From contig CBDCWP010000040.1 of the NCBI GenBank assembly GCA_965223505.1, positions 64,001 through 128,000 of the forward strand: a stretch of DNA of 64,000 bases. The letters are read 5' to 3'. The position numbers were made by a program, and so were the translations under genes. The notes under the pieces were generated by a model. The model had not been told where the DNA came from. It did no database searches and saw nothing but the letters and a program-made list of their open reading frames with translations. Origin of the DNA: Planctomycetota bacterium (GTDB taxonomy: Bacteria > Planctomycetota > PLA2 > JAEUHO01). Shown in pieces: positions 47,549-63,541 of the stretch; the stretch's first letter is position 1, and every line of letters begins with the position of its first letter.

Positions 47549-48658
47549 ATGCGCACGACCGTCTGCTTGGTGATCTGCTGCGTCGCGTGGGGATTCAGCC
47601 CATCTTCCATCTTCGCGCGCGAGCCGCCGGAGCCGCCCTCAGACGGCCCCCGGTGGCACGCAGGCTACCCGCCCCAACCGAGCGACATCGCGAAGCGTCG
47701 GTTCATTGGCGCGGACCTACCCGAGGCACGCCACGTCGTACCGGACGACTCGGACTCCGATGATGTGCCGACATTCGTGATCGTCCTCGAATCGAACGGA
47801 AACCTGACCTTCGACGGCAACACGTGGCCATGGGCGAAGCCCGCGCAGACGGCGCTTCGCGAAGCCCTCGCGCGCTTCACCGTCGATCTGACTCAGCGCA
47901 ACGCTGACGGCGCGGGACGAGGCGCGTTTCAGCTCCTCGCCGATCGCCGGGCACAGTGGACCGGGTGCGCCCAACTGTGCCACGAGTGGCTACGGGACGG
48001 CGGTCGAACGAATCGACTGCGAATCGGCGTCACTCGATGGGACTGGCCCGAGAATCATGAACGCATGGACGCACGGGTCTTCGCGTGGTCCGGCGGCGGC
48101 GGCGAGAAGGCTACGCTTTCGGTTGCCCTCACCTTGCACGCCGGTGAGCCCGCCGACGCTGGGCCGGGTCCGCATGTCAAGATCGCCATCGGAAACGCGT
48201 CGTTCTCCCTGCACGCGTCTCCTTGGAGGGAACAGGCCCTCGTCGATGCCGCCAACGGCGTATGGAAGGACATCGAAGAGGCCGTCGCCGATCAGTCTGG
48301 AGATCTCGGCGCGGCAACGATCACGGCGCCCGGCGAGCATTCAGCCGTGCCGTGGGGCCACGTCGTCGCTGTCATGGACGTTCTGCTCGACTGGGGCATT
48401 CGCGACGTCCGATTCCCCGACCAGGAGCTGCGCATTCTCTTCGACGAGATGGCGGTAACGCCGCCGCCTCCCGCACGCGGCCCGGAGGACGAAGGAGCCT
48501 CCGTGCTCTGGATTGTGCTTGGCGCGTTGCTCGTCATCGCCATTCCGGTCGCCGTCGCGACGGCGCGTTCGCGACGGCGGACGCGCACCGTTCGTGGGCG
48601 AAGCGGCTCCAGGTCATCACGGGTGGGCCGCTCGACTCGTCGTCAGCGACGCAGGTAG
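47549..48658 (+). CDS. Secreted protein with two ExbD/TolR-like domains and a C-terminal TM anchor
   Basis: Signal peptide; QLLADRRAQW and VPWGHVVAVMDVLLDWGIRDVRF resemble ExbD periplasmic domains; TM followed by Arg tail. Confidence 0.5.
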   Translation: MRTTVCLVICCVAWGFSPSSIFAREPPEPPSDGPRWHAGYPPQPSDIAKRRFIGADLPEARHVVPDDSDSDDVPTFVIVLESNGNLTFDGNTWPWAKPAQTALREALARFTVDLTQRNADGAGRGAFQLLADRRAQWTGCAQLCHEWLRDGGRTNRLRIGVTRWDWPENHERMDARVFAWSGGGGEKATLSVALTLHAGEPADAGPGPHVKIAIGNASFSLHASPWREQALVDAANGVWKDIEEAVADQSGDLGAATITAPGEHSAVPWGHVVAVMDVLLDWGIRDVRFPDQELRILFDEMAVTPPPPARGPEDEGASVLWIVLGALLVIAIPVAVATARSRRRTRTVRGRSGSRSSRVGRSTRRQRRR

Positions 48659-48818
48659 ACAACGCGCGCGCACTTTGTGGCGGATTCACGTCCCCGGCGA
48701 CCCGCATTCAGCCATGCAGTTCACCTGCGCATGGCCCCTCGATGGAGCATTCGATCTACACTGGCGACACGTGCCCGGCGGTCGGTGCGGACTGAGGAGG
48801 TTGACTTTGAGATCCCGA

Positions 48819-50963
48819 GTGCGCCCTCACATCCCTGTCTTCCTCGCACTCCTCGCGCTGCTCTCGACGGGAAGAGTCGGCTCGGCGGACGAGGACGCCG
48901 ACCACCTCAAAGCGCGAGTCAACGCGTTTCGGCCGTTGGTCGATGAAGCGCCCTGGACGGTTCGAATCGATCCGCTACCGGCAAGCGTCGTCAGGGAGCA
49001 AGCGCAGCGCGCGCCAAAGTCCAAGCGCAAGAGTTATGGAAAGGGGTTTATCGCGGGTTACACGCTGAGTGCCGAGATCCCAGGTGAGGAGGCAAGCGTC
49101 GAGGGGCTCGCCATGCGCTTCGATACGCCGAAGAACGCGGCAGCGTTCGTAGAGCTCGAGCGGGAGATCTTCAGGGGCGAACGCAGCACCAAGGACGTCA
49201 AGATCACCACGCGGACCTTCACGCCGAAAGCCGGCGTGAACGGCACGATCCCTGGCTTCTTTCTCAACCGAGTCATGGACTTCGGCGGCGGACTGACGCT
49301 CGAGCTTCGCGCGCACTTCATCCACCGAGAGCACTACGTCGCGGCATTGATCGTCACGGACGCGCCTCAGGTCACGCTCGCTTCGCAGCACGACGCGATT
49401 GCTAGAGTCGATTCGCTCCTTGTTGATCCGACCAAGGTGCGAAAGCGCTCAGCGCCGGACACAGCCGCGGGCAAGGAGAATGACGTCCGGCGCGCGATCC
49501 GAGACCTCGCTCACACCGAGGCCTCCAAACGCGCCGACGCGGCGATCCTGCTCGGCGAACGTTTCCCAGAGGGCGCGATGGCCGTTCCGTTGCTCGAAGT
49601 GTGCCTTCGTGACGAGGACAAACGCGTCCGAGAGGCGGCCGCACAGGCCATCTCGGCGCTCGCAACTGCCGCAGCCCCGGTTCTCGCCGAGTTCCTGTCC
49701 GACACAGCGCATCAGCAGAATGTCGCGTTCCGCAAGGCGCTGGCCTTGCTGCGCGAGCTCGGAGCGCACATCACACCCTTTGATCTCGACAAGGTCGAAG
49801 GGCGGGCCGCGAGAGCTGCTCGGCTGTGTCTGGCGCCGCCCGAGCGGGACGCGACCCTCGCTCGCCACGTCCGACCGCTGACGCGAGAGATCCTGGCATC
49901 CGACGCGGGCCTTTTCGCACCTGACCATACGGTTGACGAGCAATCCAAGATCGCGTGCGCCGCGCTGGCGCTCTTCGGGCTGGACGCGCTGCCGCAACGA
50001 CCGGCGTTGCCGGAACCGGGCGGCCTCATGAAGCTGCTCGCACATGGTGATCCCGATGTGCGCTGGGCTGGCGTTCAGCTGGCCCGCATCGTTGGTAGTG
50101 AATCGTCCAAGGTGCGTGATGCTGTACAGAAGGCAACAGGCGCCGGCGGGCCCCCTACGTTGCGGCTTAGGAAGGGTCTGACGGAGTTGATCGAGAGTCT
50201 TCCGTCTGCGAATGACGATCCTGATGACTACAACCCGTACTCGCTGCCCGTGACCATCGAAGACTTGGCAGCCCTCGGCAAGAAGGCGGGGCCCGCGCTC
50301 CCGCGCCTGCGCCAGCTCTACGTGATTACGAGGAAGCATGAAGGCCACGTCGCATCGGGACTCGACCTGTCCATCGGTGGTGCCATCTGCCAGATCGCCG
50401 GCCCGAGCAAGGAGTATCTCGATCCTCTCATCGAAGCGCTCGCCGACGCCTCTGCCGACCGATACAGCAAGGAGGGTGCGCGGGGCGCGAACGCCGCGTG
50501 GTGGCTCATTAATATAAATTGGGACGCGGTACCTGAGGCAACTCGCAGGCGGGCTGGCAAGGCTGCTTCAGCGGCGCTCGAGACGGACGCCACTGGGCTG
50601 CAGGGGTGCATCCTCGCGCTGCTCGTCGCATTGGGAGACGCAGCCAAACCGGCGGCAAGTCGAGTCGGGACGGTATTAGGAGAGGCCGACGTCCGGTATC
50701 ACGAACTCGTTGATGAAGTACGGAAGGAGGGTCGATTCGTCGAAGGCCCCGGAGCGGTCAACGCGATCTTCGTTGCTCGGACACTCGCTTTCATCTCGGA
50801 AGTTGCGATTCGTCATCGCGCCATCCACGTCCTTGCGAACTGCGCGCCGCACCACGCCGCGACGCGTGCGTTGCTAGTGGGCTACACCGAGGGCAACGAT
50901 CCGCTGCTGGCGTGTGAGGCGGCGGCCGCGTTGCGTCTCGTGGGAAACGCCAACGAACGCTGA
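48819..50963 (+). CDS. Secreted HEAT-repeat protein
   Basis: GTG start then signal peptide; HEAT motifs DEDKRVREAAAQAI, GDPDVRWAG, ALGDAAKPA. Confidence 0.65.
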   Translation: MRPHIPVFLALLALLSTGRVGSADEDADHLKARVNAFRPLVDEAPWTVRIDPLPASVVREQAQRAPKSKRKSYGKGFIAGYTLSAEIPGEEASVEGLAMRFDTPKNAAAFVELEREIFRGERSTKDVKITTRTFTPKAGVNGTIPGFFLNRVMDFGGGLTLELRAHFIHREHYVAALIVTDAPQVTLASQHDAIARVDSLLVDPTKVRKRSAPDTAAGKENDVRRAIRDLAHTEASKRADAAILLGERFPEGAMAVPLLEVCLRDEDKRVREAAAQAISALATAAAPVLAEFLSDTAHQQNVAFRKALALLRELGAHITPFDLDKVEGRAARAARLCLAPPERDATLARHVRPLTREILASDAGLFAPDHTVDEQSKIACAALALFGLDALPQRPALPEPGGLMKLLAHGDPDVRWAGVQLARIVGSESSKVRDAVQKATGAGGPPTLRLRKGLTELIESLPSANDDPDDYNPYSLPVTIEDLAALGKKAGPALPRLRQLYVITRKHEGHVASGLDLSIGGAICQIAGPSKEYLDPLIEALADASADRYSKEGARGANAAWWLININWDAVPEATRRRAGKAASAALETDATGLQGCILALLVALGDAAKPAASRVGTVLGEADVRYHELVDEVRKEGRFVEGPGAVNAIFVARTLAFISEVAIRHRAIHVLANCAPHHAATRALLVGYTEGNDPLLACEAAAALRLVGNANER

Positions 50964-50970
50964 CGAGATG

Positions 50971-51345
50971 CTACAAACGCTCTTCTCTTGTATCTCGTAG
51001 TCGGTCCAGCTGTCGATGCGTTTTTCTTCTCGAGTTCCAACTCCCGAAAGCATCCACGATTGCAGGCCAGTTGTCCTGAACTACTGCGATTTGCTCATTG
51101 AACGAGAGGTAGTCATTACCCGGCCCAACGAGCAGGTCTCGCAGGAGAGCTGGGTCGTACCACTCCTTCGGCTTCTTCGCATCGGCGACAGCGACAAACC
51201 GCTCACCCATTTCGTCTCCAATTTGGACGGCGACGACCGGTCCGGCATAAACGTCGTCCTTATAGAGACCCTCGCGGGCCTGGCTCCTGTGACGGAGACC
51301 CATTCGCTTGAGGAACGCCACGAATTCGACTGGCTCGAAGTTCAC
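50971..51345 (-). CDS. Putative immunity protein
   Basis: 124 aa; AGGAGG RBS overlaps the stop of the upstream toxin-like gene; EWYDPALLRDLL core. Confidence 0.6.
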   Translation of the reverse strand: MNFEPVEFVAFLKRMGLRHRSQAREGLYKDDVYAGPVVAVQIGDEMGERFVAVADAKKPKEWYDPALLRDLLVGPGNDYLSFNEQIAVVQDNWPAIVDAFGSWNSRRKTHRQLDRLRDTREERL

Positions 51346-51355
51346 GATTGGCCTC

Positions 51356-54300
51356 CTAAGGTGGTGGGTTCATTCCGTTTCGCGTACGAACGTAGCCGAG
51401 TTCCTCGAGCCACTTCACCTCTTTTCTGACCCAGGCTGTCGGACGTGCTTTCTTCAACGGTTGTAGGAAGACAACTCGCTCGCGACGCGCAGCTGTTTCT
51501 CGGATGAAGTTCCGAAGCAGTGCCGTCCGCTGCTCACCTGTCAGTGCTCTCCACTTCGTCTGGGAGACTCGGAAGTGGCGGGCGCCAGTTGCGCGGGCCT
51601 CAACGGCCCAGTGCCGTCTCGCTGAACCGAGTACCGTAACGCCGGACTTCGTCGGCGGCGTCGGCGAAACTGGCCGCGGCCCACCAAGTTTGAAGTCCCA
51701 GGGATTCGCGGTTACTGGAGGCTTGGACGCATAGACATGACCGGCGGCTAGCCTGACGTCCAGGAACAACCCCCAAGCCTCGAGCCCCCCCAGCAGGATG
51801 CTGTAGGCCGAACTCACGAGCTCGTTGAGCTCCTTGGAGAAGGTGAGGGCTCGCTCGATGTCACCCAGCGACTTGGTGATCTCCTGCTGCACCAGACCAT
51901 TCGGATCAAGCGCGAGGTGCGCCGCTGGATCGTCATCGAGCAACGCGGCCTCGAAGCCTGGGTGCAGCATTCGATCCAGTTCCAGGCTGATTCTGTGCGC
52001 GTCAGCCGTCAGGTTGTCGTACATCGAGACGCCATGGCGTCCGTATGCACCTGACGGCCCGAAGATCCTGAGCGACTCCTGCGCCACGATCTCAAGCGAC
52101 GCGTGCACCGAGTAGAGCTGCGCGGCACGGGTCAGTAGAGCGGACTTGGTTCTCAGCGTCTCCAGGTCTTCGAGGAGGCGATCACAATCGCCGACGTTGC
52201 GCCCCCGCTCCAACGCCGATCGTGAGTCGAGCTCGATCCCCAGAAGAGACTGCCGGGCCGAGCCGATCCGCTGTGCAATCGGGGTTGCCCAACGCGCCTT
52301 GGCAGCACGCTGGACTGACTGAATCGGAAATCCGCCCTCGTTCGGATTGAAGAGCCCCTTGTGTTGCGCGGCGCCTCTAGGCCGCTGCCGTCTAACATGG
52401 CGGGCGTCGGCGGCTCTGCCCTTGAGCCTGTCCTCGAGTCTCGGTGCGGCCGCAGCAGCTTGCTCGAGCGCCGACGAGGCATCGCTGATCGCGGTCGCCG
52501 CTTCGTTCAAAGAAGCAAGCAGTTGACTCGCCTCCAGCCAGGCGCGCTCACATGGATCAGACGTTTCGTCGAGTCGCTGGAAGTCCGGAATCGGATCGCC
52601 ACCGCCTTCGGGCACTACTGTCGGCAGCCGCCGGGGCTCTTCCCGACGGTCTCTCTTCCGTTGCTCTGCGTACTCGATGCGCGCTTCGGCCCCTGCCCGC
52701 TCGGCGTCCGCAACGTCCGTCTCAAGCTCTCGGATCTCGGCATCGAGTTCCGCCCGGCGTGCTCCGGTTGTACCCAGATTCGCCTCCAACGTCCGGTCGA
52801 TGATGCCGAGCTTCGCCTCGTACTTCTTTTCGATCAGGGAGCGTTCCTTCCCGACGGGGCGACCCGTCCTCCGTCGCTCATCCCGAAGCTGCTGGAGCTC
52901 TCGCTCGAATGAACTGAGAGTCGCCTCTAGCGATGAGATTGCACGAATTCGAATCAAGATTTCGTTCTGCAAACGCTCCTTCTCGCGACGAAGCCGAGCG
53001 AGCTCAGCCTCATGCCCTGCGGTGAGTGTCCGGCGACCTTCAATCTGCGCGATTCGATGCATCGTCTCCTGGAGTTGAGCGCGAGCCTCGTCGAGGTTCG
53101 TCTCTTCCTCGGCGATCCGCTCTCGAAAGGCATCGCCAACTCGGCGCTCGGCCAGGAGCTGTCTCGCCAACCCGCCGAGCTCGCTCGGCACGCCAGGCGG
53201 CCCAGGCGTCCTCTGAGTGCCATCGGGAGCTCGCATCTGTCTGCTGGCGGGGGCGTAGCGACCAACGCCCATGAGACCCAGTCTTCTGTCAATCTCCGCG
53301 AGATCATCGACGAGTTGGTTGACTCGCGCCTTGTCAGATGTCTCTTGGATCGCTTCAATCACGCGGTTCCGCGCCCGCCCCAACTGCTGCGCATCCGGAG
53401 GCAGGACGGCTGCCTCCTCCAGCTTCAGCACCGGTTGTGCTAGCGGGATGGCTGCAGGAGCGATGGCCGGCGATCCGACCGCGGGAAGCGAGGGCAGCCT
53501 CGGCACGAGCGGCGGGAGCCCTTTGAACGCCGCCGCGCCACCTGGGTTCGGAAGCGCGTCGCTGACATTGGCCTCCACCCAGTGCTCGAGGACACCGAGG
53601 TGCCGCAGCTGCTGCTCGACAAGTCCGATCCGCCGGTCGACGCTCTGTATCTCCCCCTGAAGATCAGCGCGGCGCTTCTCGCCCCACGTCGTTCGGCGTT
53701 TGTACTCGAGCTTGGCCTTCTCACGACGCAACTCTGCAAGGGCCGCCCTCGAACTCCGAACGCGCTCCTGATCCCGCCGGGGCACTGCTTCGTCTCTGGA
53801 GCGCCAAAGTGCATGGGTAGCCTCGTCGATCTGCGCCAGCAGGTTCGCGTACTGGGCCCTGGCCGCAAGCACCGCGTCGACACTCGAGTCCGGATCATTG
53901 ATCGTAAGAAGAGCGAACTTCGCCAGCTCTTGAAGTTCGCGGAGTCCTTCCAGGTTCTCTCTGACGTCGGGGTCGTCATCCCCTTCGATGGCACGATCCC
54001 CCCGCCCTCCGTACAGCTCTTTGACCTGAGCGGATGTCAACTGCCCATACGATGCGATCTGCAGGTTCGACTGTGCTTGATCGATTCCGTTGTTGAGCTG
54101 GCCGATCTCAGCGTCAATCCTCGCCTTTCGGTCGGGATTCGCTGTGTGTCTCTTCTTGTTCTCGAGGCGCTTCCGCCTTCGCCTTAGATCAGCGACCTTT
54201 GCGCTGTTGTACCTTCGAGCTCCGGCAGCACGCGCGTTGTTGAGAGCCTTCATCGCAGCGTTGCGCTTCCGTTGCGCCTTCTGGGCGGCAGCGAGCGCCT

Positions 54301-55809
54301 TGTCGTATTTGGCTTTGCTTCCTTTGCCTTCGTTGAGCTTCTCGCGCTCCTCCGCTTCTCGCTGTATGGCGTCGTACAACTCGTTGTCGCGCTTGATAAG
54401 ATCGTCAACGGCCTTCTTGACCTTGGGGTCCTTTTCGAGAGCGCGCTCAGTCTCCTCGTCGTACCTGTCGTACTGGTCGTCGTACTTGTCTACGAGCTTA
54501 GGTGGCTCGATCTGTGCTAGGAACAGCGGCGGCGCCGTGGGCACGCCAGCCGCTTCTCGACGCGCGAAGACTTCTTCGATCATTCGCGCCGCACCCGGCC
54601 CCCGGGTCGTCTCGGTCGAGTCCCCGTCGCGCTCGCCTCTGCTTTCCCCTGGCGGCGGAGGAGGAGGTGGCGGGGCCGATGGTGCCTGGGGTGCGTACTC
54701 CCGCTCGGGCGGCGCGCCGCCGGGTGGCGTCGCCGGCCGGGACGGCTCCTCGCCGTGAGGCGGACGCATCGCCGGAACGACGACCTGAGGTGTGGGCGAA
54801 GCGGGAGGTCCAGGCGGTTTCGGCGATCCCTTGCCACGCCCCTCTCCAGGGAACCGCGGGACGCCACACTGCCATGGTGTCTCATTGAACGGGTACGGCA
54901 ACGGGTAGCTCGGAACGTAGTCCGCATCGAGCCATCGACCACTCTCATAGTCGGGCTGCGGCACCGGTAGCCACGGATACGGATACGGACATCCCCGCGG
55001 GAGGTCCCGCTGCGCAACCCAGGCGTAGTCCCCCAAGGGCCTCGGCTTCGTTGGAGGCCCGTAGAGCGACTCCATTGGAAGCTGCAAGAGCTCGTCCACC
55101 GAGCCCTCTCCAGTCAGGGCGCGCCCGAGAGACGTCTGTCGAAACGCTTCGTCGCGTTGCCGCTGAAACTCGGCCTCCCGCTCTTCGAGCTCTCGGTTCG
55201 ACGCGCCGATCGGTTGACTGTCGGTCCCGCCGATGACGGTGTAAGGCTGCCTGGCATCGGGCAGCGGCGTTGGCACTTGCACCCATCGATACTGCCAGCG
55301 GCCAGGATCCGCGTCGTCCATGTAGGCCTGCAGATGGCGGCCAGCCTTCGCGAGTTGCCGGATCTCATTGTGAGCCCGCTGTTGTGGACTTCCGAAGCGG
55401 GCGTGAACGCCCGGTGCGATGTCGTACACCTTGCGGCGCGCGTTCCACCGAAGCAGTCCGTCTTCGATGACCTGCGGCGGAGTAGCCACGGATCCCCAGC
55501 TCGGATCGAACTGAGTGATCTCATGCAGGCGCGAACGCTGCGGCGTGCTCGGCGCGTTTCCCCAGGGCTGGCGCAATCCGGGTGACACGCCGCCTCCAGG
55601 TCCCAAGAGTCTCCCGTTCCCCAGCTCGGATCGAACTGAGTGATCTCATGCAGGCGCGAACGCTGCGGCGTGCTCGGCGCGTTTCCCCAGGGCTGGCGCA
55701 ATCCGGGTGACACGCCGCCTCCAGGTCCCAAGAGTCTCCCGGCAGCGTACGGATCGAATTCCGGCCGACTCGCAACGTCTCGGACGTAAGGGTTGAAGAC
55801 ACTCGGCAT
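51356..55809 (-). CDS. Large Pro-rich/coiled-coil protein with polymorphic-toxin-like C-terminal domain; frame broken at a 125-bp duplication
   Basis: ATG 55809 coupled (TGATG) to the upstream gene; frames 55114..55809 and 51356..55606 join at the duplication; distinct basic C-terminal ~95-aa domain. Confidence 0.7.
55493..55741. repeat. Tandem duplication, two identical 124-bp copies, period 125 bp
   Basis: 55493-55616 equals 55618-55741; encodes GRLLGPGGG...HEITQFDPSWG twice. Confidence 0.92.
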
Positions 55810-56651
55810 CAGTAAGCCTTCGGGTCGATCGATTCCACGCTACTCAGCAGGCTTCTGACGCGCCGGTTGTACTCGGCCCAGGTTTCGTCAGGTCGCTTCT
55901 CCGGTCGCCTGAAGGTCGCCAGTTCAGAGGCCGGTGTCGGGGGCTGCAGCCCGTATGGCCGCACTTGCGTGCGAACGACACCCGGAGGCGAGAAGCTCGC
56001 TTGCTGCGCATGCACCATCCAGCGCTCGGCGTCGGAGAGGCCCTTCTCTCGATACATCTGCCGTTGATACGCGCCGCCGACCGGACCCGCGGTCGATGCG
56101 GAAGGGCTCGAGTAGCCGATAGGTGCTCCGGACGTCGCGTCGAAGGGCTGGCGGCGGGGCGTGACGGAACCGCCGTACGCCCCACCGACCGGATCGAACG
56201 ACGAAGGCCCTTTACTTACGGCATGCAGCGGTTCATACGCTGTCGAAGAGGGCCCGGGACTCGGCGCTGTGCGATGTTTCAAAGAGGCGACGCTGCGCCG
56301 CTCGCCATAGTAGGCGTCCTGAGGTCCGTACGAAGCCGCGATTGGGAGAGCTCTGTACGCATCCTCCATCGGCGTCGGCGGTGGAATGTACGGCTGCACG
56401 CTGCCTGGTCCCTGCGCGAGGTTCGCACGCGCTTGTTCGAGGAACCCAACGGCGCGAGCGGCTTCCTGAAGCTCACGGAGACTCTGCTCTCGGGACTGGA
56501 GGTACTCAGGCTCGGGAAGCGCTGCCTGCCCGCCTTCACCCTCGGGAAGCATCTCGGTCGTCTGAGCGTACCCAAGCGCGAGTTCGTCGCCCAGGCCGCC
56601 GAACGGGAGCGGAAGTCCGGCTTCCGTTGAGGAGACGTAGTTTCTCGGCAT
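55809..56651 (-). CDS. Low-complexity Pro/Ser/Tyr-rich hypothetical protein
   Basis: 280-aa ORF with GAAGGA RBS; FDPVGGAY/GPVGGAY repeats; C-terminal RPDETWAEYNRRV. Confidence 0.65.
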   Translation of the reverse strand: MPRNYVSSTEAGLPLPFGGLGDELALGYAQTTEMLPEGEGGQAALPEPEYLQSREQSLRELQEAARAVGFLEQARANLAQGPGSVQPYIPPPTPMEDAYRALPIAASYGPQDAYYGERRSVASLKHRTAPSPGPSSTAYEPLHAVSKGPSSFDPVGGAYGGSVTPRRQPFDATSGAPIGYSSPSASTAGPVGGAYQRQMYREKGLSDAERWMVHAQQASFSPPGVVRTQVRPYGLQPPTPASELATFRRPEKRPDETWAEYNRRVRSLLSSVESIDPKAY

Positions 56652-56696
56652 CGTCAGACCTCGATTCCTTCAAGGGACTCGTGTGAACGAGGTGTT

Positions 56697-57608
56697 CTAC
56701 GGCGTCACGTCGCTTAGCCGGATCAGCGAACCCGGCGACAGAGTCGCGAAGCCGATGTTGAGCTCCAGGTCCGCGTACAGCAGGTCCGCTTCCGCCGAAG
56801 TCCGGTGCGGACCGTCCACGCGGATGCCGGCACCGGTGTCTTCGTTGTAGAACCACACCAAGCCGCCGAACTGGGGCTCGTCGTCTCTGGGACCGAGGAT
56901 CGTCAGGTACACGGACGTCGTCGTTGCCGTCTCGGTGTCGGTGATGAAGTCCGACACGAGCACCGGCACGCCCATGTAGCACGCGACCGGCAAACCGAGG
57001 ATCGGGTCCGGCTTGACTTGCGGCGTGAAGCCGGAGGCGTGGCAAAGCGCGGTGAACGCGCTGTACTGGCCGCGGTTCATCACGAACGCGCGCGGCGTGC
57101 CGCCATCCCACGGGTAGAGCGCCTCGATCATCGAGTCCAGGTGCGCCAGCGTCAGCGCCCCGGCCGCACTGATCGTCTGCGCGGCCTCGACCAGCGTCTC
57201 GAGTCCCGCCGGCTCGTCCGTGACGTTGTCGCCATAGATGAGCTTCTCACCTACGGTGTTCCACATCGCGATCATCTTCTCTTGGATCTGCTGCTCGAAG
57301 ACGTCGTTGATCATGCTCACGTTCTGAGCGATGTCGCCGGTGACCTCGACCTTGGCGGCGATGCGGCGAAGCTCGAACTTGCGCGCCGTCGAGTCGTAGG
57401 TCGTCGCCGAAGCGTCCGCGTTACCGCCGGAGTCGATGAAGCTGGCCGTCGCCAGTGTGTCAACCTCGGTGCACTGCAGGCTGTCGCCGCGCACCATCAC
57501 TTTCGGAACCCTTGGCAGGAGCTGATCCGAGTTGTTGTTGACGAGGTACGCGCCGAGTACCTGCGGATGCGAAAGCAGTAGTGCTTGTGCCTTGGTGACG
57601 GAGGTCAT
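56697..57608 (-). CDS. HK97-fold major-capsid/encapsulin-like shell protein (shell A)
   Basis: AGGAG RBS; motif order LLPRVP, RKFELRRIAAKVEV, EKLIYGD..GL, LTLAHLDSMI, AFVMNR, YMGVPVLVSDFI, TSVY as in SrpI/family-2 encapsulin-related phage capsids. Confidence 0.78.
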   Translation of the reverse strand: MTSVTKAQALLLSHPQVLGAYLVNNNSDQLLPRVPKVMVRGDSLQCTEVDTLATASFIDSGGNADASATTYDSTARKFELRRIAAKVEVTGDIAQNVSMINDVFEQQIQEKMIAMWNTVGEKLIYGDNVTDEPAGLETLVEAAQTISAAGALTLAHLDSMIEALYPWDGGTPRAFVMNRGQYSAFTALCHASGFTPQVKPDPILGLPVACYMGVPVLVSDFITDTETATTTSVYLTILGPRDDEPQFGGLVWFYNEDTGAGIRVDGPHRTSAEADLLYADLELNIGFATLSPGSLIRLSDVTP

Positions 57609-57645
57609 TCTCTCTTCTCCTCAATGGGGACGTGTCGAAGGCACG

Positions 57646-58509
57646 TCAACAAACGACTTCTTGACGGCGTGGGATCCAGCGGAAGCTCCAGCCCGAGCCG
57701 TCATTCGGCTTGTAGGGCTGAAGCATCTGTCCCTGCTCGTACCGGGGCGCGACGCGATGGAACCACTCCATCAGCGCCGGCTCCTCCTGCGCGACGAACA
57801 CCGGGTGCATCGCCGCGGGCGAGAAACGGTAGGCGCCGAGCGTCGGATCGAACTGCATGACGACGCCCTGGTACGTAGCGGGCGGCTGCCCCCAACTCGG
57901 ATCGAAGCCGTTGACGATGCAAACGGCCTGCGAGGCGGGAAGCGGTGCCAGGTATTGACGTGTCGGCTGGATCGGCGTCGAAGGAAGGGCCGACGAGGGA
58001 TCGACCAGCCCTGCGTTGTCGAACGGGGCACCCTGAGATCCGTATACGGCCTGTTCGGTGAGCTGAAGCGGAAGCAGGCCGTAGGGCTCGCGATACGCCT
58101 CACCGGGCCTCGACACAGCGGCGAAGTTCGATCCGATGCGCGCGGGCACGGACGGACGCGCTCCGATGGGGTCAACCGTGGCACTCGGAGTCGGAATCTG
58201 TCCGTTGCCGCCCGACCCGATCGGGCCGGGGTGCGGCGATGACGTGAAGTCGTTGGCCCCTGCGCCCAACGGAACGTCGAAGTCGCTGGTCGGTCGTGAC
58301 GGCTGCGGGTGCCAAGAACGCGCAACGCCCGACCCGCCCTGATCGATCGCGAATCCGCGTTCGTCGAACTGGCGCTCTTGGCGTGAGGTCCCGAGCGAGC
58401 CGTCCAGGTCGAGTGGCGCGCCATCAAGCGAGGTGAACGCCCCCTGGCTGTTGATCACGAAGGGCCCGCAGGACCGACAAGCACAGGCAGCCTTGCTCTT
58501 GCACGCCAT
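57646..58509 (-). CDS. Pro-rich protein with Cys-rich N-terminus and C-terminal FDPSWG domain
   Basis: MACKSKAACACRSCG start; disordered middle; C-terminal domain resembles the N-terminal part of the large toxin-like protein. Confidence 0.7.
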   Translation of the reverse strand: MACKSKAACACRSCGPFVINSQGAFTSLDGAPLDLDGSLGTSRQERQFDERGFAIDQGGSGVARSWHPQPSRPTSDFDVPLGAGANDFTSSPHPGPIGSGGNGQIPTPSATVDPIGARPSVPARIGSNFAAVSRPGEAYREPYGLLPLQLTEQAVYGSQGAPFDNAGLVDPSSALPSTPIQPTRQYLAPLPASQAVCIVNGFDPSWGQPPATYQGVVMQFDPTLGAYRFSPAAMHPVFVAQEEPALMEWFHRVAPRYEQGQMLQPYKPNDGSGWSFRWIPRRQEVVC

Positions 58510-58520
58510 GGTTTCGGGTC

Positions 58521-59501
58521 CTATCCGATGTTCTCCATCCATCCGACGCAGTTCGTGCCGTGGATGAGACCGACGTTGAGTTGAAGCCCGATTTGCGACT
58601 GGTCGGTTCCGTCCTCGGGCTCGAAGTTGGAGATCACGACGCCGGGCGCATGCGTGCTCGCGATCAGGAAGCCGCGTCCGACCATCGCAGAGAGATTCTC
58701 TCGGAGCGACTCGGGCAGTCCGGCCATGTCGAACTTCATGATCAAGGCATTGCCGTCAGGCACGTAGCTCGACTCGATGACGCGCACGCGGTCGAAGAAC
58801 CACTGCTTCTTGCCCGTTACCGAATCGAGCTCGAGCGTCGAGATCCCGCTGCTGGCCATGAGCTGGACGAACTGAGCGTAGACGTCCTGCGCGAGGACCA
58901 TCGTGTATTGCTCGACGGCGCCCACCTGGACATTGAGCATCTGACGCAGGCACATCAGCCCCTTGAACGACAGCGGCATGCCGCTTCCCTCGGGCGGATC
59001 CTGGACGTTGCTCTCGGCCGTCGCGATGTCGTAGAGGCTTTCCGGCGCGTCAGCGACCGGCGTCGTCGCGAAGAACGACGTGTAGGCAGTGGTCAGCATC
59101 ATCTCTGCCAGAGCACGCAGCGCGACATCGACGACGTTGTAGTCGGACTCGCCGATCTCTACGGCGTCATCGATGGTGATCTTGCACGCGAGCTGGCTCA
59201 GTTCCACTGTGCTTGACTGCCACTGCGGCGGATCCGTGTTGATCGACGTGCCGTCGTTGTTGCTCCAAACGGCGTTCGTAACCCACGCATCGAGATTCGA
59301 CAGCGCCGATACGGACACCTTCGACGTCTCGAACTGTGCCCACGGCAACGGTGCGGCCAGCAGCTCGCGGTCGCTGATGACGAGCCCGGTCTCCTGCGGC
59401 GGCTCGACAACCTGCTCACGATTCCAGATGGCGTTCGGGCGGTAGCCTGGTGTCGAGTAGGAGAAGAGCGCCAGCGCTTCGGACTTGGTGGGACCGGCCA
59501 T
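58521..59501 (-). CDS. Second, divergent HK97-fold capsid/encapsulin-like protein (shell B)
   Basis: N-terminus TKSEALAL parallels shell A TKAQALLL; LLAAPLPW, VELSQLACKITID, FDRVRVIESSYVP, LQLNVGL align positionally with shell A. Confidence 0.6.
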   Translation of the reverse strand: MAGPTKSEALALFSYSTPGYRPNAIWNREQVVEPPQETGLVISDRELLAAPLPWAQFETSKVSVSALSNLDAWVTNAVWSNNDGTSINTDPPQWQSSTVELSQLACKITIDDAVEIGESDYNVVDVALRALAEMMLTTAYTSFFATTPVADAPESLYDIATAESNVQDPPEGSGMPLSFKGLMCLRQMLNVQVGAVEQYTMVLAQDVYAQFVQLMASSGISTLELDSVTGKKQWFFDRVRVIESSYVPDGNALIMKFDMAGLPESLRENLSAMVGRGFLIASTHAPGVVISNFEPEDGTDQSQIGLQLNVGLIHGTNCVGWMENIG

Positions 59502-59578
59502 TTCGAGCACCCGTACGACGACATCGCCTCACCCGTCGTACTCCCGAGGTCAGCCTTGGAAACCCACCTTCTCGACAA

Positions 59579-59677
59579 GCGGGCAACTGCCGGGCAACGT
59601 CCGGGCAACGTCCGGGCAACGACCGGGCAACGACCGGGCAACGTCCGGGCAACGACCGGGCAAGAGCCGGGCAAGCT
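59579..59677. repeat. Nine tandem 11-bp direct repeats, consensus CCGGGCAACG(T/A)
   Basis: Six exact-consensus units at 59590-59655 plus three degenerate flanking units, in a divergent intergenic region. Confidence 0.92.
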
Positions 59678-59738
59678 CCCACGGTCCCGCGGGTTGAGAC
59701 AGCGATATGATCGAGTGATTTCACACTCAGGAGGTCTC

Positions 59739-60227
59739 ATGACCACGAAGCCCATCCTCACGAGAGCTCCCGGCAATCCGTGGTTCGAGACCGAGGACCT
59801 GGCAGGCGACGTGAGCGCCGGAAGGGTCCGGGTCGCGACTATGGTCGGCTTCTCGCTGACCGGCACGGGCACGGCGACGGACGGTGTCTCGTGGGCCACG
59901 GAGCCGGCGCTGATCACGGACCTGGCCTTCTCGGTGACCCCGGCTGCGGCGGGCCTGAACGGCGGCAACCTGTTCATCGAGGTCAATGCCGCGGGGCAGT
60001 CCGCGTTCTCGAGCGCCGACGGCTGGGTCCAGGTGATGCCGACCTACCACTGGCCCGCGGGCGGTGTGCAGGCCTACGAGAGCAACGTGCTGGGCAAGAA
60101 CCACGTCCTGACAGTGTCCGGGACCGGCGTGGCGCGAATTCGCGTAACGGCAACGCACGTTGGCGGTTCCGACGTCGTCGAAGTCTTCGCCGGCGTGACC
60201 GTTCTGGCGGCCAAGCCCACCTGCTAG
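59739..60227 (+). CDS. Hypothetical beta-strand-rich protein (162 aa)
   Basis: CAGGAGG RBS; G/T/V/A-rich alternating pattern; no signal peptide. Confidence 0.7.
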   Translation: MTTKPILTRAPGNPWFETEDLAGDVSAGRVRVATMVGFSLTGTGTATDGVSWATEPALITDLAFSVTPAAAGLNGGNLFIEVNAAGQSAFSSADGWVQVMPTYHWPAGGVQAYESNVLGKNHVLTVSGTGVARIRVTATHVGGSDVVEVFAGVTVLAAKPTC

Positions 60228-60406
60228 ACGAACCCGGCGACCGGGCCCCAAGTGCGATGCGGCACGGCAGGGCCCAGCTGGCGCTCTCCGACTGTCTCGT
60301 TTTGCAACACGGGCACTCGCCCAAGCCGGACGTCCCGCCGCGAAACAGATCGGCCTCCCGCTCGGCTCGCATCGCCGTACGCTGGAGTTGGGAGAGGCGA
60401 AATGGA

Positions 60407-61138
60407 ATGCGTCGGGTTGTTGTCGTAGACGGCGGCGCCTCGATACGAGGCGTATTGGGCGATCTGTTTCGACGTCCGGCCTGGGCGCCGCTCGTCGAAG
60501 TCACTTCCGGCGAGCGCGGGATCCAGGCGCTGCGACTGGCACGCCCTGATCTCTCAATCGTAAACGTCGTACCCGCGATGGAGGCAAGCGCGCTCGATTT
60601 CATTGAGACCGTGCGGCACGATCAACTCCTCGATCGCTGCGCGATCGTCGCGCTGCTGCCTGTCGTCAGTACCGAGTGCGCGAGGCGGTTCCACGAGGGC
60701 GCCGATCTGTGCATGTCGCCTGAGTGGGTCGTCGAGTCGCCGGGGACGTTTCACTCGTTCGTCGAGTGCGTGCTCGAGCGTCGCGACGGTAGTACCACGC
60801 CGGTGTTGCATGTGGATTCGGGGCGGCAAACGGCCAGGTACGGCAACACAGAGCACGCGCTCTCGGAGTGTGAACTCCGCATCCTCTCGCGGATCATCGA
60901 GACGACCGAGAGGGTCGTGACGCATGCGGAGCTGGCGATGGCGATCTCGAGAAGCGACGACGAGAACGGGCGCAAGGCGGTGCGGCGAGCTGTCGCGGGG
61001 ATACGCTCCAAGCTCAAGTCCTGCCCCGGCCTCATCGAAACGGTGTCGGGGGTCGGGTATAGGGCAGGAACGAGGTTTCAGATCCAAGTCGCCCGGTCTT
61101 TCCGGCGACATTCGAGGGCGTTGCGCGGTGACGCGTAG
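60407..61138 (+). CDS. Atypical OmpR/PhoB-family response regulator (pseudo-receiver plus winged helix)
   Basis: VVVVDG, PDLSIVN (Asp replaced by Asn), GADLC without the Lys; wHTH LSECELRIL..VVTHAEL..IETVSGVGYR. Confidence 0.78.
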   Translation: MRRVVVVDGGASIRGVLGDLFRRPAWAPLVEVTSGERGIQALRLARPDLSIVNVVPAMEASALDFIETVRHDQLLDRCAIVALLPVVSTECARRFHEGADLCMSPEWVVESPGTFHSFVECVLERRDGSTTPVLHVDSGRQTARYGNTEHALSECELRILSRIIETTERVVTHAELAMAISRSDDENGRKAVRRAVAGIRSKLKSCPGLIETVSGVGYRAGTRFQIQVARSFRRHSRALRGDA

Positions 61139-61677: not shown

Positions 61678-61890
61678 TTGAATCAGGTTGGCGAGCCGCT
61701 CTTCGTTTCGATCGACTGCGAGACGGCGAACTGCGATCTGCGGAGCATCTGCCAGGTTGGTATCGTTGCTTTCGATTCAGACGGCCCTGTCAAGGAATGG
61801 TCGTCGCTCGTAGATCCCGACGACTGGTTCGACGAGGTGAACATCGAGATACACGGAATCGATGAGAACGCCGTCCGGGACGCGCCCAGC
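61678..61890 (+). pseudogene. N-terminal fragment of a DEDDh 3'-5' exonuclease (DnaQ-like)
   Basis: FVSIDCETAN..SICQVG..LVDP..IHGI..VRDAP, then similarity stops abruptly. Confidence 0.7.
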
Positions 61891-61929
61891 CCGGTCGAGA
61901 GGGCAAGACGCGCAAGCCACTACCTCCCG

Positions 61930-62162
61930 ATCAGGTCGATCGCACGATCCCGGTCATGCCGGAGCGGTGCGCCGGGTGTCGCTCGACACTTCGGCCCGAG
62001 GACGTGGCTGGTGATCCGTTCCGTCATCAGGTCATCGAGATCCCTCCCGTCGTTGCCGAGGTCGTCGAGTACCTCCTGCATGCCCTCAAGTGTAGGCGCT
62101 GCGGCGAGATCACCGCCGCGGACCTGCCCGAGGACGTGCCCAAGCACCCCGCCTCGACGTAG
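61930..62162 (+). pseudogene. IS66 transposase zinc-finger fragment
   Basis: PERCAGC..RHQVIEIPPV..VVEY.LH..CRRCG..A.LP.DVP. Confidence 0.7.
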
Positions 62163-62668
62163 AACGCGAAGCCGCGTGTGACGCACTTGAAGTCCGGCCC
62201 GCCGTTCTTCGGATGTTCGGCCGGCTCGATGTGATCGACGTAGCGCACGAGCCAGCGCCGGCATAGCGCCCCCCAGATCGCTCCCTCGATCATCCGGTCG
62301 TCAGCGAGCCGGCGCCGCCACTGCGTCAGGTAACGCGGCGTGAAGCCCGACAGCCAAGTAGCGTGTTCGTCGATTGTGGGCGCATGGACGCGCCGCAGCT
62401 CGTCCGGCGTGCGCCGACCGGGTCGATCCGTTTGAACCTCGAAGCCGGACTCGCTCCGGTATGGCGCCGTGATCTTGCGGAAGCTCCTCCGCGCGCATCG
62501 AGACCGATGCCGGGCAAGGCTCCGCTTCCTGCGAATGACGGCCGGCCGACGTGCGCACCGGGTCGAAGCCCTTCGGGAGATGCAATCCGTTCGCGCGGAC
62601 ATCGCCGCGGTGAAGGCGGGAGATGCGGAACGACTGCACAACCTTCTGGCTAAACGAGGGCGGTTTCG

Positions 62669-63379
62669 TCAGTAGTCGGTGCGGCAGGCACGGGCTGTAT
62701 TTTCGCGGCGACCCCCGACCATCCGCTTCACGACCTGGACGTGCCAGCACTTGGCGTCGCGGGGATTGCGAGCCTCCGCGATCAGCACGCGCCCGATCCG
62801 GCGCAGCGACAACCCCGCCGCCCGCAGCTCCCGTGCCCGCGCGACCGTGGCCTGCTCGTCGGCATCCTCGACGACCCTTCCGTCCTCGAGCCGGTAGCCA
62901 TAGGGAACGCCCCCGACACGCTCGCCATTCGCTTTCTTGACCGCCAGCGCGGCCTTCGTTCGAGACCGGATGATCGCGCGCTCGTACTGCGCGAACACGT
63001 CGATGACGCCTCTAAGCAGCTGCGCCTCGGGGCCGTCGCCGTTGCCGGTGCCGTCGGCGGACTGCACCCGCGCGCCGTGCCGCTCGCACAGCCGCTCGAC
63101 CAAGGCGGCGGTTAGTACGTCCCGGGCGAGGCGGTCACGCTTCGCCACAACCAGCAGACTGGCGCCTTCGCGCCTTACCGAATCGATCGCAGCGACGAGC
63201 TCGGGTCGCTTCTCGAACGCCGCGCCGCCGGACACGCCACTATCGAAGTGCCAGGCGACGACCACTACATCGTTTCGCTTTGCCCACGTACGGATCGCCT
63301 CGCGCTGTGCCTCGGGTGAGAGGTCCTGGCGGGACGTGGAGCAGCGTAGGTAGGCGATGGCGCAGGTCGGCTCGCTCAT
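62669..63379 (-). CDS. Serine recombinase (resolvase catalytic domain plus short recombinase-like C-terminus)
   Basis: AYLRCSTSRQ catalytic Ser, DSGVSG, RPEL, KRDRLAR, AQYER..IRSRT, GGVPYGY. Confidence 0.92.
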   Translation of the reverse strand: MSEPTCAIAYLRCSTSRQDLSPEAQREAIRTWAKRNDVVVVAWHFDSGVSGGAAFEKRPELVAAIDSVRREGASLLVVAKRDRLARDVLTAALVERLCERHGARVQSADGTGNGDGPEAQLLRGVIDVFAQYERAIIRSRTKAALAVKKANGERVGGVPYGYRLEDGRVVEDADEQATVARARELRAAGLSLRRIGRVLIAEARNPRDAKCWHVQVVKRMVGGRRENTARACRTDY

Positions 63380-63541
63380 GTGGGCCTCCAAGGGCGAGGC
63401 GCATGAGGGCGTTGAGGGCCCGGGAGATCAAGGGAACTCAGCCTGTGGGGCGGCAAGCGCGGGGCGGTTTGTCTGTTTCGCGTCGGATCTGCGCCCGTTC
63501 TCTGTCCGACTCCCGCTTCCGCCTCTACGACGCTTGTCAGC

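Follow-up and report, generated by a model that had tools for sequence, protein, structure and literature searches.

The operon described here lies in a 64,000-nucleotide stretch of DNA from a Planctomycetota bacterium, hereafter called the window, and it brings together two genes for HK97-type capsid proteins, the gene of a polymorphic toxin and a candidate immunity gene. Judging from the genes and their relatives, we consider it reasonably probable that this is a self-contained chromosomal operon, in which a capsid-derived module, made up of two HK97-type paralogs and accessory proteins rich in Pro, forms a genetic unit with a polymorphic toxin and the immunity gene of that toxin. The arrangement suggests that a virus-derived protein shell is used for carrying toxins. 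The genome of the window (G000) is a 5.15-Mb assembly of 44 contigs, 92 % complete, and the window is G000:C40:64001-128000.

Six genes on the minus strand make up the operon, in the order shell B, g2, shell A, g4, the big gene and small, with a spacing of 0-45 nt. The original prediction, which was made from the sequence of the window, had placed these six and two further genes here, and all eight exist at the positions claimed, with the claimed order and the tight packing in one direction. The ATG of the big gene overlaps the stop of g4 as TGATG. The TAG stop of the big gene is part of the sequence TAGGAGG, and the GTG of small starts 7 nt further, so the ribosome-binding site of small overlaps the preceding stop, as had also been proposed. 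Every operon protein is single-copy in G000. The GC content at third codon positions (GC3) is 0.85-0.88 in the shell genes, with 0.85 in shell B, and thereby host-like, as compared to 0.62-0.76 in g2, g4, the big gene (0.71) and small (0.62); small also has the lowest GC content within the locus, 0.57-0.59. No Rfam family was found between 50500 and 62500, a promoter scan gave 0 sites and a terminator scan gave hits at chance level only.

Two diverged shell genes and a shared domain

By its family matches, shell A (56697-57608, minus strand, 303 aa) is an HK97-type major capsid protein. It matches PF05065 (Phage_capsid, E 5.1e-8) and PF17236 (SU10_MCP, E 8.8e-7) in Pfam, phrog_212, 'major head protein', in PHROGs (E 1.7e-22) and, under the cut-off, the NCBIfam model MCP_gp7_epsi_15 of the epsilon15 gp7-type (E 5.5e-16). 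The phage capsid models outscore the encapsulin model encap_f2a of NCBIfam, which reaches E 1.6e-5 and 24.2 bits with a cut-off of 380, and shell A thus falls outside the described encapsulin family. A search of PDB with the sequence of shell A gave nothing meaningful, and the best matches of its profile (E 0.012) are chains named 'Major membrane protein I', which we take to be family 2A encapsulins. The relatives of shell A form 54 clusters with 56-75 % identity over the full length of ~305 aa, which points to selection and not decay; several of these homologues are located on contigs of 18-402 kb. Only 34 of 50,697 phage records match shell A, the best with E 2e-7 and all 34 with less than 60 % identity; among the 12 best of these 34 the identity is 26-30 %.

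Shell B (58521-59510, minus strand) is a 329-aa open reading frame (ORF) with a likely start at 59501, which gives 326 aa, and its profile identifies it as a distant, diverged paralog of shell A. Alone, it matched nothing in Pfam, PHROGs or the PDB sequences, and a scan of the genome contigs with the single protein gave no match. Its family consists of 11 clusters including its own, the 10 relatives being 45-61 % identical, and the profile of this family aligns with that of shell A in hhalign (98.1 %, E 1.3e-13, 256 columns) at an identity of ~15 %. Furthermore, in the related loci L003 and L009 the gene upstream of shell A was directly detected as a 25 %-identical relative of shell A, which together with the profile match implies that the two shells are old paralogs. 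The HK97 fold claimed for both proteins in the original prediction is upheld in this way, for shell A by PF05065, PF17236 and phrog_212, and for shell B through the 98.1 % profile match.

The gene g2 (57646-58542, minus strand, with a conserved Met at 58509) is placed between both shell genes in the window and in L001, L002, L003, L004 and L007. The alignment of its relatives has an invariant CX5CXCX2C in the N-terminal, a Pro/Gly-rich middle, and a C-terminal domain of ~85 aa with the pattern NGFDPxWGxPP...MLQPYK...WxFRW. This domain is homologous to the N-terminal domain (N-domain) of the toxin (55268-55525, minus strand, FDPSWG...RWQYRW), with an hhalign score of 96.4 % (E 1.3e-9, 79 columns), and the motifs FDPxWGxPP, LQxY and WxxRW are common to the two. 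The sharing suggests that the FDPxWG domain is a module for association with the shell. Compared with the cargo of encapsulins, the domain common to g2 and the toxin, and the Pro-rich linkers, are suggestive. The fourth gene, g4 (55809-56651, minus strand, 280 aa), codes for a Pro-rich protein with two FDP/FDA motifs and is weakly conserved, being found in L001 and L002 and absent from L004 and L023; it has no family match in Pfam, PHROGs or NCBIfam.

The relatives of the operon were collected from a class sample of 40 genomes, where class equals order in the collection, and from a phylum-wide sample of 401 genomes. A close shell A was found in four class genomes (G000, G184, G408 and G409) and in 2 of the 401, where five further genomes had distant capsid matches (E 6e-24 to 8e-11). 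The toxin N-domain is present in 5/40 and 3/401 genomes, respectively, the five being the four shell-bearing ones and G391. No shells were detected in G391, and the 942-kb contig G391:C2 carries only short fragments of the N-domain (L055 9117-9837), which look like a decayed copy.

The gene order is well preserved. In L001 and L002 it was possible to follow, by tblastn, a divergent beta gene and then shell B, g2, shell A, g4 and the toxin N-domain, while L004 has a shell B-like gene, g2, shell A and the N-domain, and L003 and L023 have variant forms. The N-domain comes after shell A in all six loci that extend at least 700 nt beyond it (L001, L002, L003, L004, L008 and L023); L005, L006 and L007 are too short to be counted and L009 has no downstream sequence. 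The big gene is thus linked to the shells, and the collection of loci with both shells, which had been proposed as a check, showed a conserved synteny, with variable tips in the relatives of the big protein.

Some of the loci deserve a comment of their own. In L003 (10950-15404), two genes have been inserted behind shell A, one for a protein of 915 aa that weakly matches thioesterases/lipases and one with an FGE-sulfatase domain; after them come the last ~64 codons of shell A, here present a second time, and the toxin N-domain. L023 has a similar pair, a protein of 1098 aa and a gene with an FGE-sulfatase domain, which comes after an N-domain that is a separate protein of 369 aa. L005 (1007-2136) is a deletion variant with the first ~47 codons of shell B, 70 nt, and a full shell A, and it has no g2. 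L001 is titled as an Acidimicrobiaceae metagenome-assembled genome and the remaining titled loci as Planctomycetota, the cause of which could be mis-binning or horizontal transfer. Distant capsid genes of the phrog_212 type also occur in other Planctomycetota (L027 10209-12002, L028 9479-10498 and L029 6452-7366), in one case two in tandem. Their vicinity holds neither terminase nor portal, and the neighbours are beta-helix, beta-propeller, FG-GAP, VWA and transposase genes.

The toxin, its exchanged tips and the candidate immunity protein

The big gene (51356-55809, minus strand) codes for what is, by sequence, a polymorphic toxin. As assembled it is split into two ORFs, 55114-55809 and 51356-55606 (1416 aa), by a perfect 125-nt tandem duplication at 55493-55741 that shifts the frame; Tandem Repeats Finder reports a period of 125, 2.0 copies and 100 % identity, which corresponds to two perfect copies of 124 nt separated by 1 nt. 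We compared this with assembled contigs, obtained independently from three runs of one sample. These contigs, at depths of 2-7, join 55481 to 55616 and so skip 55482-55615, that is, the duplication plus 9 more nt (three codons). The remaining 194 + 4126 nt add up to 4320 nt, or 1440 codons, and hence to a single frame of 1439 aa that opens with the ATG at 55809. We regard the duplication as a probable artefact of the assembly, or else as a minor variant. The protein of ~1450 aa described in the original prediction therefore stands as a single frame on the independent contigs, but not in the assembled window, where the duplication interrupts it.

From composition and homology, the 1416-aa ORF can be divided into the N-domain (residues ~28-113), a Pro-rich linker (~200-360), two charged helical segments (~360-680 and ~730-1000), a helical pre-tip region (~994-1271, at 51794-52627), a Pro linker and the tip (~1321-1416, at 51359-51646). 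RHS repeats, a YD shell and a cleavage motif of the PxxxxDPxGL type are all missing from it. A search with the full-length protein found only itself, where the 8000 candidates that could be scored were perhaps filled by low-complexity matches. We also considered a role as tape-measure protein, which was rejected, as there is no match to a PHROG or Pfam tail family and tail genes are absent.

The tip belongs to a C-terminal domain family known from the ends of RHS/YD-repeat proteins. When the last 434 aa were compared to 1.84 billion representatives, 23 matches were found, and 21 of these cover the tip alone, each time at the very end of the matching protein, the length of which is 114-1707 aa. 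Pfam finds RHS_repeat in three, RHS in two and TEN_YD-shell in one of the 22 tip-bearing sequences (the 21 matches and the window's own), and the domain is preceded by DPxGL-type and HINT-like junctions in the matching sequences. A profile built from ten tip domains, leaving out that of the window, had the big ORF as its sole match (E 7.3e-15) among the 43,791 six-frame ORFs of the genome. The same C-terminal domain is thus found on other delivery scaffolds, as is typical for polymorphic toxins. The domain has no Pfam family, and it was not found in 400 other Planctomycetota genomes.

The other mark of polymorphic toxins, a shared N-terminal or central part joined to unrelated C-termini, is seen in three relatives. 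The protein P0071 keeps the pre-tip region of the big protein (phmmer E 2.5e-33; BLASTP 34 % over 295 aa, E 6e-39), and the homology stops before the tip, after which the C-terminus is unrelated; a PDB sequence search with P0071 gave nothing meaningful. The contig G409:C182 covers the C-terminal 919 aa of a homologue of the big protein, with an identity of 63 % at the end of the N-domain and 30 % over the first helical segment, and its tip is a colicin D tRNase (1v74_A, E 1.3e-10, residues 824-908 against 9-94, with KH..DFG aligned). An ORF of 95 aa begins 8 nt past the stop of this homologue, and it did not match the solved ImmD. The third relative, in G408:C385, is shorter, and the domain at its C-terminus is different again.

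A possible site of exchange is marked in the assembly of G409. The last 77 nt of the shell contig C756 recur identically at the start of both C182 and C338 (end of L002, start of L048 and end of L049); C182 and C338 are 90.5 % identical over the first 116 nt, and further on no similarity was found. The assembly thus forks exactly after the N-domain, which implies either that the population contains two variants or that there are two copies.

The AlphaFold2 (AF2) model of the tip, with a predicted local distance difference test (pLDDT) score of 79.4, has a small flavodoxin-like α/β fold. Its structural neighbours are weak, and include the TIR protein ThsB (Z 5.5), MilB (5.0) and nucleoside 2-deoxyribosyltransferases (NDT; 4.9-4.2), with SARM1 TIR and a CD38-like type VI secretion system (T6SS) toxin lower down (4.0-3.9). 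The weak TIR, deoxyribosyltransferase and CD38-like neighbours give a tentative hint of an activity of N-glycosidase or NADase type. The residues G11, W36, F51, E80, G88 and Y89, which are invariant in the family, are retained in the tip of the window.

The last gene of the operon, small (50971-51345, minus strand, 124 aa, GTG start), codes for the candidate immunity protein. It has no match in Pfam, PHROGs, NCBIfam, PADLOC or the PDB sequences. A model of the complex between the tip and small reached an interface score (ipSAE) of 0.75, with 0.80, 0.73 and 0.75 in the single runs, as compared to 0.20 for the best of three controls. Among 157 solved pairs 116 reached the mark set for this score, as did 2 among 215 mismatched ones, counts which apply only roughly here because our own alignment was used for the complex. 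The pLDDT of the partner was at least 90 and the contact agreement at least 78 %. The modelled interface on the tip comprises residues 12-16, 31-36, 44 and 68-78, next to the invariant Glu, so that in the model small covers the conserved loops of the tip. The model supports that small binds the tip. The reading as a toxin-immunity pair, made in the original prediction, is supported by the homology of the tip to the ends of RHS proteins, by the variable tips, including that of colicin D, and by the modelled complex.

A gene for an 816-aa HEAT-repeat protein (48513-50963) is convergent on small. HEAT-repeat proteins are listed among the immunity proteins of some planctomycete toxins in Zhang et al. 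(2012).

Genomic surroundings and rival explanations

On the other side of the operon, a spacer of ~230 bp separates shell B from beta (59739-60227, plus strand), a divergent gene for a Gly-rich protein of 162 aa. No family or PDB match was found for beta, which is kept in the closer subfamily, divergent from shell B and with an identity of 42-44 % in L001, L002 and L005 (tblastn). It is followed by the regulator gene (~60401-61138, plus strand). The regulator is of the OmpR/PhoB type, with a receiver and a winged-helix output domain, and matches PF00486 (Trans_reg_C, E 4e-10) and PhoB TIGR02154 over residues 4-221 (E 1.5e-6). In the receiver, by eye, Asn takes the position of the phospho-acceptor Asp and DG replaces the acidic pair, and the regulator may be an atypical, phosphorylation-independent one. 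The spacer contains a direct repeat array at 59580-59674, in the divergent promoter region, with the 11-nt unit CGGGCAACGNC repeated 8.6 times; a two-unit pattern of it gave 6 matches, against 0 in 100 shuffles. A direct-repeat period of 11 bp would fit binding of the OmpR/PhoB type. Thus, beta and a winged helix-turn-helix regulator do face the operon across a repeat array, as had been noted originally. The array is not present in L001, L002 or L005 and was for that reason rejected as a conserved feature of the system, and the regulator had no tblastn match in the related loci. By these comparisons, the regulator and the array are local to this genome and outside the conserved core.

The original prediction had further stated that no terminase, portal or tail gene can be recognised in the window. 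It is correct that the operon proteins have no match to a terminase, portal, protease or tail family (Pfam, PHROGs), but a terminase gene lies ~7 kb past the end of the window. The region past this end contains IS66, a QatC-like gene, a large terminase gene (phrog_2, E 5.5e-36), a ParB-methyltransferase gene, an excisionase-like gene and DUF2924, and further on a tyrosine integrase gene, an ImmA/IrrE-type regulator and DUF4411 genes (L019, G000:C40:126001-146000).

We rejected this terminase as part of the operon, as it belongs to a separate module, which is multi-copy and independent of the shells. In L032 and L036 the module is compact and consists of genes for a ParB-methylase, the large terminase (TerL), a 128-aa protein (u128) and a serine resolvase. 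In G000 it is interrupted by a 325-aa gene, the QatC-like defence gene (PADLOC QatC, E 3.5e-50) and IS66, and the resolvase gene at 62669-63391 in the window is the end of it. The TerL module was found in 12 of the 40 class genomes, often in several copies (five in G407, two in G000), and no portal or capsid gene lies beside it; in the shell-bearing genomes G184 and G408 TerL was not found. At 61678-62181 in the window there is an ORF for an RNase T-type exonuclease which matches its family only over residues 10-82 and is then apparently frameshifted; the second half of this ORF has a 79 %-identical match in G391:C2.

The search for portals covered PF04860, the SPP1-type and the P22-type, while a search with PF12236 (T7-type) matched no control genome. 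The PF04860 portal is present in G000 only on contig C32, three times in G409, and is absent from G184 and G408; the SPP1-type and P22-type searches gave no match in any of the four genomes with shells. The upstream flanks of 8-10 kb in L003 and L004 contain no phage families. In L003 the genes upstream of the shells code for UvrA, an adenosine deaminase, a DCC1-like oxidoreductase and an AraC-type regulator, and in L004 for Tad/type II secretion system pilus proteins, a TPR protein and an esterase. Downstream of the operon there is the convergent HEAT-repeat gene in the window, and in L023 the FGE-sulfatase-domain gene and an ECF sigma factor gene. No tRNA was found in the window or the next 20 kb, and thus no attachment site can be assigned. 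In the operon and these flanks, no portal, terminase, protease or scaffold, and tail genes of known families were found co-located with the shells, as they would be in the head module of a prophage. The neighbourhood instead resembles that of encapsulins in being free of phage genes, with the flanks of L003 and L004 as evidence and the terminase as a separate unit. With chromosomal flanks in these two loci, and with G184 and G408 lacking both this terminase and the PF04860 portal, a complete-prophage context is not supported by these loci, in line with the original prediction.

Even if we regard it as unlikely, the alternative to be taken most seriously is that a temperate phage or satellite of Planctomycetota, unrecognised or in decay, has its head module here, with big as a toxin packaged in the virion, like MuF toxins or internal virion proteins, and with a portal, terminase and tail that are too divergent, located elsewhere or supplied by a helper. 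MuF toxins are a precedent for this (Jamet et al. 2017; Zhang et al. 2012), shell A is nearer to the phage capsid families (phrog_212, epsilon15 gp7-type) than to the encapsulins, and in G000 a region with terminase, ParB-methylase and integrase genes adjoins the locus. In L005 a ParB-like fragment of 33 aa (82 % identity) abuts beta. The patchy distribution, 4/40 genomes, with the remnant in G391 and the deletion variant in L005, resembles that of a decaying accessory element. A decaying head module is difficult to reconcile with a shell A that is conserved over its full length in 54 clusters, which points to selection, and with the host-like GC3 of the shell genes. It also fits poorly with the lack of terminase, portal, protease and tail families in the operon and in the flanks of L003 and L004, and the shells do not co-occur with TerL and portal. 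Furthermore, the phage records reach an identity of 26-30 % at most among the best matches given above, and no relative was found with the two patterns used in the 2.9 million contigs of IMG/VR.

It is very improbable that the toxin-immunity cassette and the capsid genes are functionally unrelated neighbours, big being a bacteriocin, colicin-like or secreted in another way, that happens to lie next to a relic or domesticated pair of capsid genes. The build of the protein, with an N-terminal domain, a helical stalk, a C-terminal toxin and an immunity gene, does resemble that of colicins, the GC3 of big and small is below that of the shells, and the orphan phrog_212-type capsids of other Planctomycetota adjoin unrelated surface proteins. 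Mere neighbours would not be expected to keep the N-domain after shell A in 6/6 informative loci across a sequence divergence of ~35 %, nor to have an N-domain homologous to the C-terminus of g2, which is located between the shells. The intact N-domain is moreover found only in shell-bearing genomes, and the TGATG overlap gives a translational coupling.

Finally, an anti-phage abortive infection system, where the shells would act as capsid-like decoys or sensors and a TIR/NDT-like effector restrained by small would kill the infected cell, is very improbable, for even if the tip has the Thoeris protein ThsB and SARM1 TIR among its structural neighbours, the QatC defence gene and mobile elements are nearby and the distribution is patchy, those structural matches are weak (Z ≤5.5), PADLOC matches no operon protein save for coiled-coil noise to LmuB, and the swap of the tip for a colicin D tRNase with a small downstream gene, like the tips shared with RHS proteins, is a mark of inter-bacterial polymorphic toxins.

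Returning to the self-contained operon, it is plausible that the two paralogs co-assemble into a closed shell that is portal-less and DNA-free, in which shell B would fill a specialised position, for instance the vertices. The shared FDPxWG domain would tether g2 and the toxin to this shell, either inside as cargo or outside on the helical stalk, and the role of the N-domain would be analogous to that of the MuF, PAAR or LXG domains of other polymorphic toxins. The immunity protein would protect the producer, and particles released from the cell would carry the toxin to competitors, so that the particle serves storage or delivery. The more specific proposal is a portal-less and DNA-free two-paralog HK97 capsid as a vehicle for polymorphic toxins, a 'toxin encapsulin' or protein-only bacteriocin particle, with FDPxWG as the loading or docking signal and tips recombined just after it; this we put forward tentatively, as a possibility and not as an expectation.

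A number of observations speak against a self-contained operon with such a function. The assembly of the shell and the loading or display of the toxin are inferred here from the genes alone, and no route for export or lysis could be identified. The fold assignment of shell B rests on the profile match, because its AF2 model, built from a 14-row alignment, was unusable (pLDDT 40.4). The fold assignment of the tip is likewise weak (Z ≤5.5, and no Foldseek match to PDB at E 1e-3 or better), and the tip of the window is an outlier in its family, without the near-invariant H-Y-P-E-Y, FLD, RGD and ATP positions, and may be inactive or act differently. The immunity candidate is without known relatives and was folded without an alignment. 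As to the surroundings, the downstream side is visible only in the window, L023, L047 and L049, with the flanking ORFs scanned in part, and the portals and terminases were detected as known families in genomes that are 82-92 % complete. The terminase module lies 7 kb upstream in G000, on the same strand, and because of this and of the ParB-like fragment at the beta gene of L005, the operon may have a looser link to the terminase element.

Comparison with known systems

Polymorphic toxins are sorted by their N-terminal domains according to the delivery machine, i.e. the type V, type VI and type VII secretion systems, Photorhabdus virulence cassettes (PVC), MuF and others. In the window, a new N-terminal domain is tied to a capsid gene pair outside phage and without a packaging motor. 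That polymorphic toxins may be linked to capsids has in part been proposed before, in the form of a 'phage-capsid-like' mode for the MuF systems (Zhang et al. 2012). Like the operon, the MuF toxins have a variable-tip toxin genetically tied to phage head genes and a proposed capsid-like loading (Zhang et al. 2012; Jamet et al. 2017). The differences are that no operon protein has the MuF domain PF04233 (Pfam, E up to 0.1), that the conserved neighbourhood is without terminase and portal in the operon and in the L003 and L004 flanks, and that these flanks are chromosomal and not prophage. Furthermore, the operon has two capsid paralogs, a new N-terminal domain that is common to a second operon protein, and a host among the Planctomycetota.

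The family 2B encapsulins, as described by Andreas and Giessen (2021), also have two distinct HK97-type shell genes per operon outside phage, and their partner proteins have long disordered Pro/Gly-rich regions that carry conserved short motifs. There is in addition a faint sequence link to the family 2 encapsulins through encap_f2a (E 1.6e-5, 24 bits against a cut-off of 380). However, the shells are ~15 % identical here and, by that source, ~60-75 % in family 2B, and the operon has no cNMP-binding domain and its partner is a 1439-aa toxin with an immunity gene, not an enzyme.

With the RHS/YD-repeat toxins the operon shares the C-terminal domain family of the tip and the small immunity-type gene directly after it. 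The delivery part is different, since the big protein has a shell-linked N-domain and a helical stalk, and several of the residues typical for the tip family are missing. Colicins are built from an N-terminal domain, a long helical middle and a C-terminal toxin, with an immunity gene. The relative in G409 comes close to colicin D, as it ends in the colicin D tRNase domain and is followed by the 95-aa ORF, but no colicin translocation or receptor domains were detected, and the tip of the window comes from another family.

The major capsid protein gp23 and the vertex protein gp24 of T4 are a paralogous capsid pair of a tailed phage. The two shells resemble such a pair in being diverged HK97-fold paralogs that are encoded together, one of which could suit pentameric vertices; unlike T4, the operon has no portal, scaffold, protease or packaging genes.

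Among the papers that were searched, none connects encapsulins with polymorphic toxins. The locus offers a candidate shell-loading domain and a candidate for a natural two-component shell of very diverged subunits. It also indicates an exchange of toxin tips between the RHS and colicin families and the Planctomycetota, a phylum about whose means of competition little has been learnt so far. If such a shell is built and the toxin travels with it, bacteria would have a new way of delivering, or trafficking, toxins against each other, and the shell would be the first encapsulin-like one with a toxin rather than an enzyme as partner, joining the fields of encapsulins and polymorphic toxins.

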